Below, one piece after another: positions 500 through 28,697 of a stretch of 64,000 nucleotides of DNA. This DNA is from Candidatus Caldarchaeum sp. (lineage in GTDB: Archaea; Thermoproteota; Nitrososphaeria_A; Caldarchaeales; Caldarchaeaceae), in contig JAWBRA010000004.1 of NCBI GenBank assembly GCA_038844785.1, positions 12,225-76,224 on the forward strand, read 5' to 3'. The notes under the pieces are model-generated. The model saw only the letters and a program-made list of their open reading frames with translations. It was not told the origin of the DNA and did not search any database. Position 1 is the stretch's first letter. Each line of letters starts with the position of its first letter. A program made the translations under genes and the position numbers.

Positions 500-1481
500 C
501 GACATCCAGATAATAACGGCTCGAAGGGTTGGCGAGAAGGACAACCCTGCTTACATCATCCTCAACAACTTTCTTAAAGCCTATTAAGCCAGCAAGGTTT
601 TCAGCGAACACCCCTATCTCTTCAACGGATGGCATGTTTGTCTTCTGGAGCCTTAGCTGCGACTCGCCCACATGTGTATAGCCCTTGCATTCTACAAAGT
701 CTGGTGAGGCCAGCTTGATGAGGTCGGCATATTTTTCAGGGCAGTGCATGTTGACGTTCTTGACTAGGGTGAGCCGTATTACCTTCCTGCAGGAGAACTT
801 AGCCATCAGCTCCAGGGATTTGAGCAGCCTCTCCCAGCTGTCTGGAATGAGCGGTTTACATGTCTTAACATGAGTCTCTTTATCTGGTCCGTAGAGGCTT
901 ATGTAGAGAGATGTAGGCTGAGCTTTTTGGATAAGCTCTTCAAGCCTCTCCGGCATCGTTCCGTTTGTTACAAGGAAAGTGGTCATACCCCTGTTGGAAG
1001 CCTCCTGTATGAGGTCGGCGAGATATGGGTAGAGAGTTGGCTCCCCGTCCAGCGAAATCGCTAAATGCTTTGGCGTCATAGCCTCATTAAACATCTGTTT
1101 TGATACTTTGGGGTTGCCGCCGAAGCCTGACAAAAGCTGGCGTTGTTCAGCGATAATCATGTCCAGGAGCTTAGAAGGCTCTTCCCAGCCGCCGTCGAAA
1201 GGCTGAACCCTGTTGAGAGTATGGAAACGCCAGCAGAAGACGCACATCATGTTGCAGTACTGCAGCGATGGAGTCATCTGGATACATCTGTGGCTTTCTA
1301 TCCCGTACCAGCTCTTGTAGCACATCTTTCCCCCGCGCAAAGCGGACTTCGTCCAGTGGCATACTTTGACGGCTGAATGATTTCCCACTATCCTGTATCC
1401 CGCCTGCTTAAACTTCTCAACCTGCTTCACTTCTTTTCGGAAGGGTTTCTCGACTCTAGCGACCTCAATCGTCTGAGCCAT
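477..1481 (-). CDS. taw1: 4-demethylwyosine synthase Taw1/Tyw1 (radical SAM)
   Basis: HSAVKVCHW, YGIESHRCIQMTP, CxxxCxxC (CNMMCVFC), AISLDGEPTLY; start at ATG 1481 or TTG 1487. Confidence 0.93.
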   Translation of the reverse strand: MAQTIEVARVEKPFRKEVKQVEKFKQAGYRIVGNHSAVKVCHWTKSALRGGKMCYKSWYGIESHRCIQMTPSLQYCNMMCVFCWRFHTLNRVQPFDGGWEEPSKLLDMIIAEQRQLLSGFGGNPKVSKQMFNEAMTPKHLAISLDGEPTLYPYLADLIQEASNRGMTTFLVTNGTMPERLEELIQKAQPTSLYISLYGPDKETHVKTCKPLIPDSWERLLKSLELMAKFSCRKVIRLTLVKNVNMHCPEKYADLIKLASPDFVECKGYTHVGESQLRLQKTNMPSVEEIGVFAENLAGLIGFKKVVEDDVSRVVLLANPSSRYYLDVATRLNRT

Positions 1482-1682
1482 TCCCAAACCGTTAAGAAAT
1501 CCGACCCATTAAAAAAGGTTGAGAAAATACATGACTAAAAACCGTCTCTGGAGCGAAGGGGAGGAGAAAACACTTCAGTCCTCAATATTTATAAATAGGC
1601 GTCCAGAAGCACCTTTTTTCCTGTAAACGGTTTGTGTTTTCAACGGAAATTGAAGGTAGGGAAAAATAGGGGGGAGGTTTGG

Positions 1683-1770
1683 CTGGAGGCAACCAGCATG
1701 ACAACACTTGAGGCAAAACGTGTTGGAAACCCAAGCGACCTAACACTGGAGGCAACCAGCATGACAACAC
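1683..1770. repeat. 25-bp direct repeat (CTGGAGGCAACCAGCATGACAACAC), 2 copies 38 bp apart
   Basis: Exact copies at 1683-1707 and 1746-1770. Confidence 0.95.
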
Positions 1771-1911
1771 CTAAGAACCCCCAAAGAAGAGAGAGGCCGG
1801 TATGTTAAATACATAGTCATGTATGGGATTGTGAGACCCATACATGTTAAAGGCTTTGTCATACCGGCTTGGGGTTTTTCTCTGCTGTCTATGGTGGTAT
1901 GACCTCCAGCC
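1746..1911 (-). ncRNA. Candidate structured RNA at the downstream end of the IS110-like element (bridge/seek-RNA-like)
   Basis: 9-bp stem 1796-1804/1860-1868, symmetric 13x13 internal loop, 10-bp stem 1818-1827/1837-1846; imperfect outer pairing 1776-1784/1869-1876 and 1746-1770/1883-1909. Confidence 0.5.
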
Positions 1912-2431
1912 TCTCTCCTGACAGCCTCTCTGATTCTTCTTATCGTTTGTTCCTCGTCTTTGGCCTTTATCCCTGTTCCTCCTTTTGATACCATCGTCAG
2001 ACGCTGTAGCGTTTTTCGGAGATGTCCGTTGAATATCTTCGGTTTTCCGCTTTTCCTGTCTACCTTGTACAGTCTGAGGTAGTCTTTGATTTTTCTTATA
2101 AGTCTATGTATGTCATAAGCTCGGCTAAAGATTCTCTCGCCATCAGATGGTTATCTCCCCCGATTCCCAGAGCCTCGACAACCCTATTGTAGGCGGGTAT
2201 CCTTTTACCCGCCTCAGAGACTATAATCTCCGCCATTTTAGTCATCTTCTCCTCCAAAGACTTGACAGCATCTTTCAAGACCTCTCTTTCAACTCCGCTT
2301 AAAGCCCTCATCCTGTTCAACACGCTTCGACAGCTCTTAAACAGGCCCCTATACCCGCAGGTTAATCTACGCATAACAAGGATGTCTTCATTGACCTCTT
2401 TGAACCCTCTGCTCTCCAAAGCCATCAACAC
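1889..2431 (-). mobile_element. IS110-family-like transposase/recombinase remnant (5'-truncated, frameshifted)
   Basis: ORF 2096-2431 continues after a frameshift near 2098 as IRKIKDYLRLYKVDRKSGKPKIFNGHLRKTLQRL, matching the IS110 C-terminal pattern Y-x-G-L...SG...GN-x-x-LR-x-x-L; N-terminal DEDD domain absent. Confidence 0.65.
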
Positions 2432-2701
2432 CTAGAATATCCCTATGGGTTGAAGACGGAACACCACATTTCAGCTATGGGAAGCCTCTGTTTATTCCAT
2501 CAGGCCGTCAGCCAAATTATGACAGGAGATATTGTAGAAAATGCTGTCAAACCTTCTCCAACAGGGATAAACACCCCAACTACAACAGAATACTAAGGAA
2601 AAAACCAAGAAAAAAGAGAAAAAGAGCGTCTCAGAGCTTTTAACAAGCCCTTTAGGAACTTCCGTAGGCTTTGCAGAACCTGTTGGTGGAGACAGCTGGC
2701 G

Positions 2702-2902
2702 ATGTATTTCGGTGCTGTTCCGGTAGTAAGCGATCACTTCGCCATGCCTGAAATAGTGGGTGACGCCGGTGTCGTGGTAAAGTGCCTAACAGGCTCTGGA
2801 ACGACGATGGAACTCACAACTGGGAGTTTAAGAAAAAGCTGGACGAAGGGCCTTACGAGGAGTTGGTGGAAAGGATTGTGGACGTGGTTCACGTGCTCTT
2901 AG
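2702..2902 (+). pseudogene. Glycosyltransferase (GT4-like) C-terminal fragment
   Basis: AMYFGAVPVVSDHFAMPEIVGDAGVVV matches the GT-B donor-binding motif EAM-x-x-G-x-PVV-x-S-x-x-x-x-x-x-EIV; no intact upstream frame. Confidence 0.65.
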
Positions 2903-2967
2903 ACGACGATTACTGGGAAAATCTTTCCGTCAAACCCATAAATCGAGCAATCTTTTAAAAGAAACTG

Positions 2968-3852
2968 ATGCGGGTTGCTGTGGTGGGGGCCCTCACAATA
3001 GACATCACACACGGTAAAACCTGCATTATCGGGGGCCCACCTTGGTATGCGGGCACAGCTGTACATGCTTTGAGAGCCGACGCCGTGCTATACTCAGCAG
3101 TGGGAGGGGATTTTCCAGACGATTTCATGCTGAAACTGGCGGAAGCTGGGCTTGACACCTCTAACGTCATAAAAGTTGAGGATGCCAGCAGCTATGTCTT
3201 CGAACCCGTTTTTAAAGACGGGGTGAGGGTTCTTAGGCTAGTCTCACAAGGCCCTCCGCTCCCTCAAAACATTCTCGAAAACGTGGACACCGAAGCTGTG
3301 ATAGTTTCGCCCGTGTTCAAAGAGGTTGGGAAAGAACATGTTATGCAACTTCGGTCGAGGACAGAGGTTTTGTCAGTGGATCTGCAAGGTTTTCTGAGGC
3401 AGCGGGACAGCAACGACTACATATTTTTACGCGGTCTTACGTTAACTGAAATATTCAGGGTGGCGGATGTAATCCATTGTTCAGCTGAGGAGGCGGTTGC
3501 CTTGACCGGCCGCGAAAATGTTTTGGATGCTGCCTCTGCCTTGGCGAAGCTAGGGGCGAAAAACTGTTTGGTCGGTTTTACGGATGGGCTTCTCCTCACA
3601 GACTCCCGAAGTTTATCGCTCATTGAGGTAGTTGAACCAGTCATTACGGACGAAGGAACAGGCGCCGGAGACATACTTACTGGCGCGTTCACCACGTTGT
3701 CTGCGGCTGGAACACCTCCTGAAGAAGCTGGCGTTAAAGCCTTGGAGGTTGTCGCGCGCTCACTCAAGAATCCGCCGCCTGACCGTGTTCCCAAAGACTT
3801 GGAGCTCACTGGAAAGCTTTGCCGCGTTGTCTGGAGGAAATCTCTCGCCTAG
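2968..3852 (+). CDS. PfkB/ribokinase-family carbohydrate kinase
   Basis: N-terminal VVGALTID...GGPP and C-terminal GTGAGD anion-hole motif. Confidence 0.88.
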   Translation: MRVAVVGALTIDITHGKTCIIGGPPWYAGTAVHALRADAVLYSAVGGDFPDDFMLKLAEAGLDTSNVIKVEDASSYVFEPVFKDGVRVLRLVSQGPPLPQNILENVDTEAVIVSPVFKEVGKEHVMQLRSRTEVLSVDLQGFLRQRDSNDYIFLRGLTLTEIFRVADVIHCSAEEAVALTGRENVLDAASALAKLGAKNCLVGFTDGLLLTDSRSLSLIEVVEPVITDEGTGAGDILTGAFTTLSAAGTPPEEAGVKALEVVARSLKNPPPDRVPKDLELTGKLCRVVWRKSLA

Positions 3853-26067: not shown

Positions 26068-27231
26068 GTGTTAAGCAGCATGGAACCTAAACCATATGCC
26101 ATAGTTCTACAGCATGATAGGTATAGACGTGAGTGTCTGAACCTAATAGCCAGCGAGAATGTGCTAAGCCCTGCTGCCAAAAGGGCCCTAGCGTCAGACA
26201 TGGCCTCTAGATACGGCTTCAGACCAGAGTTTTACTCGGGCACTAGTAAGATACATGAGATTTGGATGTTGGCTGAGGAGCTTGGGAAGCAGGTTTTTAA
26301 AGCAGAGCACGTCAACGTCACACCTCTCTCAGGACACGTTGCCTTGATGACCTGTCTATATGTTTTGTGTGGAAAAAATGGAAAGATAGCCTGCGTAGAC
26401 CCTTCAGCTGGTGGTTACCCTGGTCTTTTGCCCGACAAGATTCCGGAAATCTACGGATGTAGGGTTGTAAACATCCCCTATGCCGACGTACATGTTAAAG
26501 CCGAAGAAGCCTTGAGCATACTGGACCGCGAAAAGCCTGATGTGGTTGTACTTGGGGCGAGCCTGTTTTTGTATCCCATTCCCGTCAGGGAGATTTCTGA
26601 ATTCGTTCACTCCTACGGCGGACGCGTGGTATACGATGGTTCCCACGTGCTAGGACTAATAGCGGGCGGAGTTTTTCAAAAGCCTCTCGAAGAAGGGGCC
26701 GACGTGCTGCTAGGTTCTACACATAAATCTTTCTTCGGACCACAAGGAGGCATAATCCTAACAAACGACGAAAAAATTGCAAAACAGGTTGACGTCTCCA
26801 CTTTCCACAAGTTTGTCGACAACATACACTTCAACAGGGTTGCAGCGCTTGCCGTTGCTCTTGACGAGATGAAAAGAAATGGACGCAGGTATGCTGAGAA
26901 AGTTGTGTCAAACTCCGCTGAGCTGGCCCGTTCTCTTGAAAACAACGGTCTTAATCCCTTTAAAACAGTTCATGGATACACTAAATCTCATCAAGTATAC
27001 CTGCCTTTTAAGGAAGATGAGGCTGTTAAAGTTAGGGACGTTCTTGAACGGTCGCGAATACTGGTGGACATGGGGGTTAGGGTTGGAACAGCTGAAGTGA
27101 CGAGAAGAGGTATGGGGCTTAAACAGATGTCAGCGATTGCAAAGCTCTTCAGAAGGGCTTTGAACGGTGAAAAAGTCGCCGCTGAAGCACGAAGCCTCGC
27201 TCTACGTTTCATCGATGTTAAGTTCACGTAG
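26068..27231 (+). CDS. glyA: Serine hydroxymethyltransferase
   Basis: NLIASEN, YDGSHVLGLIAG, GSTHKSFFGPQGG, RVGTAEVTRRG. Confidence 0.93.
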   Translation: MLSSMEPKPYAIVLQHDRYRRECLNLIASENVLSPAAKRALASDMASRYGFRPEFYSGTSKIHEIWMLAEELGKQVFKAEHVNVTPLSGHVALMTCLYVLCGKNGKIACVDPSAGGYPGLLPDKIPEIYGCRVVNIPYADVHVKAEEALSILDREKPDVVVLGASLFLYPIPVREISEFVHSYGGRVVYDGSHVLGLIAGGVFQKPLEEGADVLLGSTHKSFFGPQGGIILTNDEKIAKQVDVSTFHKFVDNIHFNRVAALAVALDEMKRNGRRYAEKVVSNSAELARSLENNGLNPFKTVHGYTKSHQVYLPFKEDEAVKVRDVLERSRILVDMGVRVGTAEVTRRGMGLKQMSAIAKLFRRALNGEKVAAEARSLALRFIDVKFT

Positions 27232-27240
27232 GCGGGCGGT

Positions 27241-28206
27241 TTGAAGGCACGGGCCACAGCCCACACCATGGAGGGCTTAATCAAATACCACGGACTTAAG
27301 GACTGGAGTCTCAGAATACCCTACCACGACAGTATATCTGTAAACCTAGATGCTTTCACAACAGTAACTGAAGTTGAGTTCGGTGATTTTGGAGAGGATG
27401 CTGCTTTCATTGACAACGTGGCTGTTTCGGGTAGAGAGTTTGAAAGAATACGTCAATTGGTTGACCATGTGAAGAAACTCGCCGACATCTCCGAGAACTT
27501 CAGAGTTGTTTCCTTCAACTCTATACCTAAGGGGAGGTTTAAGGGATTGGGTTTTTCTTCCTCGGCGGGCGCGGCCTTGGCAGCAGCAGCCTACAAAGCA
27601 TCTGGCCTGCATAAAATCTATGGATGGGACATGCGTCTTGTCTCGAGAATAGCTAGAAGGCTGGCCGGCTCAGCTTGCAGAAGCGTTGTGGGGAAGTATG
27701 CTAGATGGTTTGCGGGAACTTCGGACGAAGACTCTTACGCTGTTTGCTTTGCCGATGAGAAAGACCTTCCGCTCAAGGTTGTTGTTGTACCTCTTTCGTC
27801 AAAATACTCGACGGAAGAGGCTCACAGGGAAGCCGAGCTATCCACCTTTTTCGAGGCAAGGTTGAAAAACGCCAGCCTTAGATGCGACGTTATGGAGAGG
27901 GCCATCAGGGAGGGTGATTTCAAAACATTTGGCGAGCTCAAGGAGCTCGACGCAATAGAGCTCCATGCAGTCACTGCTACTGGTCCAAAAAGACTCATAC
28001 TCGCTACAGACGAGAGCCTGAGGGTAATCTCTGAAGTCCGACGGCTGAGAGAGGAGGGGGTGGAGTGCTATTTTTCGATGCAGACCGGGCCGACGGTCTT
28101 CATAAACGTACATCCAGAAGACTCTGGCTACGTTTTCGGCATGGTTGAGGACCTTGGGTTCAAGCCCATTCTCTCAGGGGTGGGCGGCCCCGTCAGAGTT
28201 GAGTGA
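27241..28206 (+). CDS. mvaD: Phosphomevalonate/diphosphomevalonate decarboxylase-like GHMP enzyme
   Basis: GLIKYHGL, PYHDSISV, GLGFSSSAGAALA, ARRLAGSACRS; C-terminal SMQTGP. Confidence 0.82.
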   Translation: MKARATAHTMEGLIKYHGLKDWSLRIPYHDSISVNLDAFTTVTEVEFGDFGEDAAFIDNVAVSGREFERIRQLVDHVKKLADISENFRVVSFNSIPKGRFKGLGFSSSAGAALAAAAYKASGLHKIYGWDMRLVSRIARRLAGSACRSVVGKYARWFAGTSDEDSYAVCFADEKDLPLKVVVVPLSSKYSTEEAHREAELSTFFEARLKNASLRCDVMERAIREGDFKTFGELKELDAIELHAVTATGPKRLILATDESLRVISEVRRLREEGVECYFSMQTGPTVFINVHPEDSGYVFGMVEDLGFKPILSGVGGPVRVE

Positions 28207-28244
28207 AGTTATTAAGCAGCTTTAACGTTATATGCGGTGCAAAA

Positions 28245-28412
28245 ATGGTTGAAATATCCGAGGAAGACATACCGTTCTTCGCAGAGGTAACAGCAGGGGG
28301 AAGGATAACAATCCCTGAGGAGATTAGGAAAATCTTCGAGATAAAGGACGGCGACTCGCTGCTGTGCAGGATAAGAATCGTCAAGAGGAAAATACAGCAC
28401 GCCACCACATAA
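28245..28412 (+). CDS. AbrB/SpoVT-like DNA-binding protein
   Basis: GGRITIPEEIRKIFEIKDGD. Confidence 0.85.
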   Translation: MVEISEEDIPFFAEVTAGGRITIPEEIRKIFEIKDGDSLLCRIRIVKRKIQHATT

Positions 28413-28421
28413 CCCTGGCCT

Positions 28422-28697
28422 TCACAGCCTTAGACCGAAAACTGCGGCAAACCTCTCAAAACGTCTGAACTCGGAGAGATAGCTCAACCCTTTCTCAGTT
28501 ATTGTGTACAGGGTTTCAGACTCACCTGTTTTCTCTACCAAGCCTTTCTCCAAAAGTATGTTCAGGTATTTGACAAGCCTGTCGTAGGAGAGGTTGGCGT
28601 CCGTCATAATTTTAGTTGGTCTCGCATATTTTTGTGAGGCGATTGACTCCAGTATGTCGGCGTATATTCTAGCCTTAGAACGATAGTCTTTCACCAT
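28422..28697 (-). CDS. Winged-helix transcription factor (archaeal HTH_45-like)
   Basis: RSKARIYADIL, TKIMTDANLSY, YTITEKG; start at ATG 28697. Confidence 0.88.
   Translation of the reverse strand: MVKDYRSKARIYADILESIASQKYARPTKIMTDANLSYDRLVKYLNILLEKGLVEKTGESETLYTITEKGLSYLSEFRRFERFAAVFGLRL

Follow-up and report, generated by a model that had tools for sequence, protein, structure and literature searches.

What is the broken gene, followed by a two-fold symmetric hairpin, that lies near the beginning of a 64,000-nt stretch of Candidatus Caldarchaeum sp. DNA (contig JAWBRA010000004.1, positions 12,225 to 76,224; hereafter the window)? The first-pass annotation had read it as the remnant of an IS110-like recombinase with its guide RNA, and had proposed a compact, little-studied archaeal RNA-guided system. 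We compared the locus with its relatives in the same 1.7-Mb genome (G000; its contigs carry C-numbers) and in other genomes. The region is best explained as a dead, internally deleted copy of a mobile element of about 1.5-1.9 kb found in Caldarchaeales-type archaea. The most likely mechanism of this element, and one that we regard as probable, is insertion targeted by the RNA, whose two 9-nt guides would read a 16-nt site. Stem covariation and tests of the guides against the flanking DNA support the assignment of the hairpin to a guide RNA. We class the element as a variant that belongs to the IS110/TasR/Nop superfamily but not to IS110 proper.

On the minus strand of the window, two hairpin arms of 32 nt each (1868-1837 and 1827-1796) face each other across a 9-nt apical loop. 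Their perfect stems, GCCGGTATG/CATACCGGC and CATGTATGGG/CCCATACATG, enclose a 13x13 internal loop, just as the first-pass annotation had described. Both loop strands share the frame AC-N9-AA (repeat 1802-1820 against 1844-1862), and the variable segments, given there as N6, are actually 9 nt long. The hairpin is part of a longer and very stable fold. The minimum free energy of window 1940-1740 (201 nt) is -76.3 kcal/mol, compared with -55.4 +/- 4.3 for dinucleotide shuffles, none of which was as stable (0 of 200; z -4.9). The outermost helix of this extended fold pairs GGCTGGAGG (1911-1903, within the last codons) with CCTCCAG (1752-1746), which bears out the claim that the hairpin extends and folds back onto the end of the coding sequence (CDS).

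All three subfamilies of G000 share one layout downstream of the CDS. It begins with GGCTGGAGGC in the last codons, continues through helices, outer stem, variable strand, conserved inner hairpin, second variable strand and outer stem, and ends with GCCTCCAGCC, a C-rich box and a T-run. We aligned 19 such sequences from G000 and seven other genomes, and RNAalifold recovered the closing helices with compensatory changes. In the 35-pair structure 93.6% of the cells are paired, a figure that falls to 32-53% if the 3' partner is shifted by 1-3 columns. Thirty cells are changed on both sides (shuffle mean 11.8) and the covariation score is 0.195 (0.136 in shuffles); neither value was reached in any of 500 shuffles, so the stem covariation expected of homologues was found. 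The G-U pairs 17-167 and 30-149 are conserved in 17 and 18 of the 19 sequences, respectively, and the covariance model gives 114-165 bits on the sense strand and 36-52 bits on the antisense strand. The conserved G-U pairs and strand-asymmetric scores favour a sense-strand RNA over a DNA cruciform. The single guide loop of the window copy is also a property of the family: each of the 19 aligned RNAs has one variable internal loop, the remaining RNA being conserved helix, and every copy examined has one guide unit per gene, with single covariance-model matches per locus. In Rfam, window 1400-3000 had no family match, and seven loci of the family matched tRNAs only.

The two loop strands are the variable part of this RNA. 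In copies that are 76-84% identical the stems are kept, and the 9 bases between UG(A/U)C and AAC are unrelated on both strands. The frame of these bases differs by subfamily (GGCU-N9-UAAU in the second, UGAC-N9-GAC in the third) within an identical two-fold layout. We compared the 5' and 3' segments, guides A and B, and their reverse complements, rc(A) and rc(B), with the flanks of 37 units (21 + 11 + 5) from 11 genome records, and repeated the comparison with 300 derangements. Exact 9/9 matches of rc(B) at +40..+700 downstream were found in 8 of the 37 units (permutation mean 0.14, maximum 2), and rc(A) matched exactly downstream in seven different units (mean 0.18, maximum 2). Upstream, at -3600..-900, A was found in sense in six units (mean 0.15, maximum 2). 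None of the 300 permutations reached these three counts. B in sense matched upstream in three units (mean 0.17, maximum 3; 1 of 300 permutations reached this). The four other combinations of side and orientation gave 0, 0, 0 and 2, which is the permutation level, and both an earlier 32-unit run and a first rough test gave the same picture.

Two-sided matches follow a strict pattern. A upstream together with rc(B) downstream was seen in units L051, L059 and L084, B upstream with rc(A) downstream in L115 and L116, and no unit was mixed. The left flank equals one guide, in sense orientation, and the right flank complements the other; the two guides can exchange these roles. Such an interchange is expected of a two-fold symmetric module that reads a single site on both strands. 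The sense guide of four copies is found at a consistent distance, 1,372-1,554 nt upstream of the module, and in the own-genome pair C23/C50 similarity stops exactly at the start of the C23 rc(B). Loop-to-flank covariation, which the first-pass annotation had predicted, is supported by these permutation tests and by the comparison of one empty and occupied site.

This site belongs to unit L111 of G009, a complete genome in a single contig, where A is GCTTGATTT and B is AACCCATAA. The uninterrupted locus reads ...GTTGGCGTGATTTATGGGTTGGATGC... in G012, whose flank is 93% identical, and ...GTTGGTGTGATTTATGGGTTGG... in G008; the empty site of both is GC(G/T)TGATTTATGGGTT. In G009 the occupied site reads ...GTTGGCTTGATTT / ATGACTATTC...(element)...CATATGCAGTGAG / TATGGGTTGGATGC..., where slashes mark the junctions, or in short form ...GCTTGATTT/element/TATGGGTT.... 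The target consists of A (9 nt, as top strand) followed by rc(B), TTATGGGTT, with a 2-nt overlap and 16 nt in total, and the element of 1,858 bp (L111:2617-4474) sits at its centre. TATG is present at both junctions and once in the empty site, and may represent either a recombination core or a duplicated stretch of at most 4 nt; the position of the cut is ambiguous. At L051 and L114 the intergenic DNA of the relatives is too diverged for boundary mapping.

At least some targets appear to be tRNA genes. At L037 (1245-1400) the right flank consists of a tRNA-Val gene cut in the anticodon loop, of which the 5' half is left, and the right end of the element contains an intact tRNA-Val; by our own reading the two guides together spell the anticodon arm of the cut gene. 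At several loci the right-end segment includes a tRNA gene or precedes one. This suggests that tRNA genes are targets and that replacement tRNAs are carried as cargo.

Several further observations concern tRNA genes. Many copies lie 50-350 nt from one (L032, L034, L037, L038, and G000 C26, C33, C35, C9, C2 and C3), and three of the four tRNA-Gln(CTG) genes of G000 follow subfamily-2 copies. At G000 C2:~83100, C12:~41750 and C14:~29750, tRNA-like 5' halves ending in the anticodon loop stand directly 5' of TAACCATAATATTGGATGG, a shared sequence at the left end of several copies of the small-ORF (open reading frame) repeat described below. We rejected, as a general rule, the idea that the element is a tRNA intron: ARAGORN called tRNAs with 'introns' of 650-1575 nt, and only one of them (C47 Val) contains the family protein. 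Interrupted tRNAs (840-1575 nt) called by ARAGORN that lack the family protein are located at C14:35863-37536, C17:2275-3766 and 27051-28599, C13:31480-32570 and C27:17870-18793, and could be other insertions or false calls.

The element is abundant in its host and patchy among its relatives. In G000 we found 33 tblastn high-scoring segment pairs and 37 hmmsearch ORF pieces in about 28 loci, many of them at contig ends, which form at least three subfamilies with 28-100% identity. A DNA search placed the hairpin-bearing 3' part at a dozen places in this genome and the tail box at more than 35. Of 31 related genomes, 14 contain the RNA according to the covariance model. Matches, counted on both strands, number 0-15 per relative and 47 in G000, an insertion-sequence-like distribution. 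The GTDB species genomes hold 63 loci, all in Caldarchaeales-type records and up to about 35 per metagenome-assembled genome (MAG). In a collection of 5.8 billion proteins, 281 match the family at E<=0.001. Among the matches listed (120 of 281) none has a Pfam domain or a name beyond 'hypothetical protein', and those with a named source come from Candidatus Caldarchaeum, Nitrososphaerota, one Thermofilaceae MAG and 'archaeon HR01'. A considerable share of the repeats in these archaeal genomes, and of the breaks in their assemblies, is explained by the element.

In L051, L111 and the own-genome copies the order of parts is left end, small antisense ORF, the gene for a protein of 276 amino acids (aa), RNA, and a right-end segment of variable length (70-320 nt). 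The small antisense ORF has an AbrB-like-looking N-terminus and a CxxC...CxxC C-terminus, and belongs to no Pfam family. On C56 and C11 its repeat lies about 280 nt upstream of the intact CDS start.

The intact 276-aa paralogue is encoded by an ORF on C53 (L002) of the same genome. An AlphaFold model built from a 40-sequence alignment reached a mean predicted local distance difference test score (pLDDT) of 86.8 and a predicted template modelling score (pTM) of 0.82. In Foldseek its best matches were ISCro4 and IS621 (E 1e-5 to 4e-5), followed by TasR (5e-4). The IS110 fold, composed of RuvC-like, coiled-coil and Tnp/Nop-like parts, covers about 250 of the 276 residues in Foldseek and VIA-align, and the Nop-domain Tas fold (TasR: RuvC + Nop) is matched as well. 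VIA-align rows within 1 Z unit are counted as tied, so the modelled protein would be as IS110-like as it is TasR-like. In the ESM Atlas, the family's own unnamed clusters are followed by clusters carrying PF02371/PF01548. Residues D20, D39, D44, K85, D90, E196 and R234 are invariant in the 40-sequence alignment. Judging by the order of secondary structures and by an hhalign alignment, D20, D44 and D90 may be the RuvC-type acidic residues which do the DNA chemistry.

None of the indexed RNA runs contained the element sequence. We used three raw metatranscriptomes from the same study, with reads from one run only mapped on L002:200-1700, where 97 reads aligned at >=95% identity. The first mate is nearly always on the minus strand, which in most stranded libraries corresponds to sense RNA. 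Two reads connect 1366, the RNA 3' end, with 342, immediately ahead of the conserved N-terminus; 5 letters separate the two parts. This is what a circle or a tandem copy would give, and either is possible, but two reads are too few to interpret.

How might such an element work? An intact copy would encode the small, divergent zinc-ribbon-like protein and the 276-aa protein with its predicted RuvC-like, coiled-coil and Nop-like fold. An RNA of about 185 nt would be made from the same strand as the large gene, overlapping its last codons and ending at the T-run. Its long closing helix would carry one pseudo-two-fold module: outer stem, UG(A/U)C-N9-AAC, inner hairpin, UG(A/U)C-N9-AAC, outer stem. 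In the left half-site, one guide has the sequence of the top strand and would therefore pair with the bottom one; in the right half-site, the other guide is complementary to the top strand. The two would tile a target of about 16 nt (with a 2-nt overlap in the one resolved case), the element being placed at its centre. Since either guide can read the left side, insertion occurs in both orientations. By analogy with the IS621 and TasR structures, the molecule probably acts as an RNA bound by a protein dimer.

Several results weigh against this mechanism or against membership in IS110. No exact downstream guide match was found in 22 of the 37 units, and an upstream exact match is present in only nine, at least 2 kb of upstream sequence being available in 25. 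Units within one genome are related, so that the permutation counts are not fully independent. By our own reading, the guide ends of other copies would allow an overlap of 0 to 3 nt. The window's own guides showed no match to its own flanks, which belong to a composite block. The mechanism does not account for the wholly different guides of copies that are 76-84% identical, nor, with only a single guide loop and no donor guide found, for donor recognition. Most of the mapped RNA reads fall at L002 200-900, and the depth over the RNA itself is only 0.4-3. For the protein, neither the remnant, the intact protein nor the 40 aligned members gave anything above threshold in Pfam or NCBIfam. PF01548 (DEDD_Tnp_IS110) matched none of the 40 members at E<=0.1, nor the remnant or the intact protein; it was also not found elsewhere in G000 and is present in 5 of the 76 genomes of the class. 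The sole profile hint was NF033542, 'IS110 family RNA-guided transposase', with E 0.069 and 12.3 bits against a cut-off of 140. An hhalign comparison of the family profile with the N-terminal fragment of a canonical archaeal IS110 gave a probability of 0.26%, which is not significant; in the aligned stretch, KSDRSDS of the canonical protein faces KTARxDxKALM of the family. Searching the PDB sequences with the family profile returned noise only.

The 40-sequence alignment also contains no serine that is invariant or at least 90% conserved, as judged by alignment column and not by residue-level comparison with the IS621 serine. The 'KIYSG' position varies between S, N, D, Y, H and C, and the serine of RKSGK, which the first-pass annotation had taken as a kept motif, is present in few members. 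In the accessible part of their preprint, Vaysset et al. call the serine site 'essential for IS110 transposition'. With no conserved serine, IS110-type serine-recombinase chemistry cannot be assumed for the family. The IS110-like label thus stands for the structure, which matches ISCro4 and IS621, and fails for profile membership, conserved serine and a two-loop RNA. Since these three properties were tested and are missing, the element is not IS110 proper.

The same guides could serve a different purpose. A TasR-like nuclease might cut empty sites and let the element spread by repair copying (homing), with no recombinase or transposase chemistry of its own. We consider this unlikely, since homing alone would leave unexplained at least 28 loci at different sites in one genome, the insertion in both orientations and the 4-nt TATG at both junctions, which resembles a recombination core or a staggered-cut duplication. 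The two RNA reads joining the RNA 3' end to the CDS start, a hint at a circle or tandem copy, also speak against it. The palindrome could also act as DNA, as a cruciform or hairpin attachment site bound by the protein, its variable arms being copied from the flanks at insertion. Pair covariation alone cannot separate RNA from single-stranded DNA, and flank copying would more easily explain the wholesale guide differences between similar copies. However, on the other strand the conserved G-U pairs would turn into A-C mismatches, the covariance-model score is strongly strand-asymmetric, a T-run lies 3' of the structure, the closing helix begins inside the CDS on the coding strand, and the closest solved relatives all bind guide RNAs. 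A DNA palindrome is therefore very improbable.

It is hardly credible, in our opinion, that the locus serves defence or regulation in the manner of TIGR-Tas, its guides acting in trans and matching their flanks incidentally. The similarity of the fold to TasR and TasH and the dual-spacer stem-loop architecture would suit such a system, as would an exact two-part match of the window guides in glyA (C3:18394). On the other hand, there is no tandem array but one unit per gene, the copies are degenerate, patchily spread and insertion-sequence-like, and the flank rule is orientation-specific, far above permutation and confirmed by the empty site. RNA-targeted insertion with two guides remains the reading that we prefer.

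Additional guide matches were seen in three places. In L068 the flank that opens with rc(A), at about +208 after the module, also holds rc(B) at 7/9, 9-11 nt further on, and at C53:1740-1766 (L002) the flank that opens with rc(A) also holds B in sense at 8/9, again 9-11 nt on. The glyA (serine hydroxymethyltransferase-like) match of the window guides spans G000 C3:18394-18422 and has the form rc(A)-N11-rc(B), with 18 of 18 bases. It departs from the A + rc(B) rule, and by our rough estimate about 0.01 such chance matches are expected per unit. A genome-wide search for composite two-guide sites with up to 2 mismatches was too noisy for use.

In IS1111-type elements the guide RNA is encoded downstream of the gene. 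The family resembles IS110/IS1111 elements (IS621, ISCro4) in overall fold and in having a non-coding guide RNA encoded beside the gene, here also downstream. The strands of its internal loop read opposite strands of two target half-sites and share central nucleotides, and it inserts site-specifically, the two junctions sharing a short repeated sequence; IS621 is said to follow a comparable left and right target guide (LTG/RTG) logic. Unlike IS110, the family falls below the PF01548, PF02371 and NF033542 cut-offs, is about 50 residues shorter and lacks the conserved serine, and by our own reading three of the four DEDD-type positions look conserved. It has one programmable loop instead of separate target and donor loops, it has a second small gene, and both the guides and the insertion sites differ among the copies of a single genome. 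IS110 elements are described with two guide loops, for target and donor, in the accessible literature.

TIGR-TasR is similar in that two short spacers address opposite strands of one DNA target. In the available text of Faure et al., stem-loop TIGR units carry two 8-12-nt spacers between box motifs and palindromic edges. According to the TIGRFinder preprint, a hairpin forms in some clades in the loop that separates the spacers, and the RuvC domains are dead in the stem-loop TasR proteins examined there, which function as repressors. As far as these sources extend, TIGR loci occur mostly in phages, archaeal viruses and candidate phyla radiation (CPR) bacteria, they form arrays and no mobility is described. 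The family module is one stem-loop unit of this kind. In contrast to the TIGR loci, it is single per gene and lies inside a larger conserved RNA overlapping the CDS end, its guides match the element's own insertion site in the manner of an IS110 target-binding loop, and the family is multi-copy, degenerate and chromosomal in archaea. Box C/D small ribonucleoproteins (Nop5) are more distant: the structural match is much weaker, canonical RUGAUGA/CUGA boxes or a K-turn were not visible by our own reading, and the family guides match flanking genomic DNA and not rRNA or tRNA modification sites.

It is only lately that structures have linked the RNA-guided IS110 recombinases to the TIGR-Tas nucleases. 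A TasR/IS110 fold with one dual-guide unit that tracks the element's own insertion sites is a testable intermediate for the joining of guide modules with mobility. It is also a small candidate system from thermophiles for programmable insertion, and its code of 2 x 9 nt is simple. Quite tentatively, and knowing that it is doubtful, we can go further and imagine that this Pfam-invisible family forms another branch, the third and a minimal one, within the IS110/TasR/Nop5 superfamily. Such an element would be self-mobilising, with one tigRNA-like, C/D-like dual-guide module (half a bridge RNA), serine-independent RuvC-type chemistry and a 16-nt site held in two 9-nt loops. If this were true, it would be the unsampled archaeal lineage said to be missing by IS110-Nop5 scenarios, as well as a very small programmable DNA-insertion system from a thermophile. 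The family bears on a statement in the accessible part of the preprint by Vaysset et al., who used iterative profile HMMs, that their database has no extant archaeal IS110 clade ancestral to Nop5. A 2026 bridge-RNA mining preprint, according to its available text, chose loci by PF01548+PF02371 architecture, a selection by which the family would be excluded. We found no paper on the family in the literature searched, nor any mention of 'Caldarchaeum' or 'Aigarchaeota' among the papers listed by one of the searches; supplementary tables of PMC12045711 and of the Vaysset and TIGRFinder preprints list loci or proteins and could include it.

Table. Features of the element copy and its surroundings in the window
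Feature	Position	Strand	Evidence
CDS remnant, residues 93-203 of the 276-aa protein	2099..2431	-	tblastn 80% identity to the intact C53 paralogue; hmmsearch 4.1e-46
CDS remnant, residues 202-269, shifted frame	1911..2114	-	tblastn 72% identity to the intact C53 paralogue
Fragment of second, divergent small gene with C-terminal zinc-ribbon-like CxxC...CxxC	2433..2648	+	25 copies aligned; no Pfam family
Structured RNA, helices P1-P4 and inner hairpin	1722..1911	-	covariance model R1 match G000:C4:13946-14135(-), 133.1 bits; family covariation
Guide module: outer stem, 13x13 internal loop, inner hairpin	1796..1868	-	kept in 8/12 aligned own-genome copies and 19/19 family RNA sequences
Guide A, 5' loop strand, AAAGCCTTT on the minus strand	1849..1857	-	hypervariable columns between UGAC and AAC
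Guide B, 3' loop strand, TATGTATTT on the minus strand	1807..1815	-	hypervariable columns between UGAC and AAC
Inner hairpin CATGTATGGG / CCCATACATG, 9-nt loop	1818..1846	-	folds in 19/19 family sequences with at least 5 different stem sequences
Conserved 3' tail: GCCTCCAGCCAAACC..CCCC box, then T-run	1616..1707	-	matches many genome places; 3' of the RNA in all three subfamilies
63-bp tandem duplication inside helix P1 (3' strand)	1683..1775		1683-1712 and 1746-1775 are 93% identical, spacing 63
1.4-kb block holding the remnant	1514..2918		missing from the two closest relatives

The window copy itself is clearly damaged. The protein remnant, read by the first-pass annotation as a recombinase, is real, with two pieces of the paralogue recognisable, and its claim that this copy is inactive holds too. 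The CDS lacks the N-terminal 92 residues and has at least one frameshift, near 2100-2114, and the 63-bp duplication is a defect of this copy, as the sequence is single in the 11 other aligned own-genome copies. The small-gene fragment directly abuts the truncated CDS, which implies an internal deletion. We considered this repeat of about 200 bp (2433-2648) as a miniature inverted-repeat transposable element (MITE) or as an upstream bridge RNA and rejected both, since it is the 3' part of the antisense small ORF.

The surrounding block is itself a composite of a glycosyltransferase fragment, the small antisense ORF fragment, the truncated CDS, the RNA and the conserved tail. In the two closest relatives, G007 (L028) and G004 (L029), whose neighbouring radical-SAM protein is 94% and 91% identical, window 2919 runs straight into 1513, with the empty junction GAAAGATTT^AATGGG. 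As both relatives join these two positions, the block is present only in the window genome, and it probably arrived as a composite piece. The glycosyltransferase fragment (2700-2918, plus strand), a GT1-type C-terminal part recognised by eye from its motifs, ends exactly at the block boundary and is single copy in the genome.

Some minor observations concern the neighbourhood of other copies and the origin of the block. GC-rich, stop-rich inserts of 0.9-1.4 kb lie between the small ORF and the 276-aa gene at C12:40700-41500 and C14:27900-29500. A related GC-rich stretch is found 5' of the C53 gene, and the parts of these regions within L002, L007 and L010 had no Rfam match. Window 1503-1571, across the right boundary of the block, is 93% identical to G000 C29:11621-11688, which is a possible hint at where the block came from.

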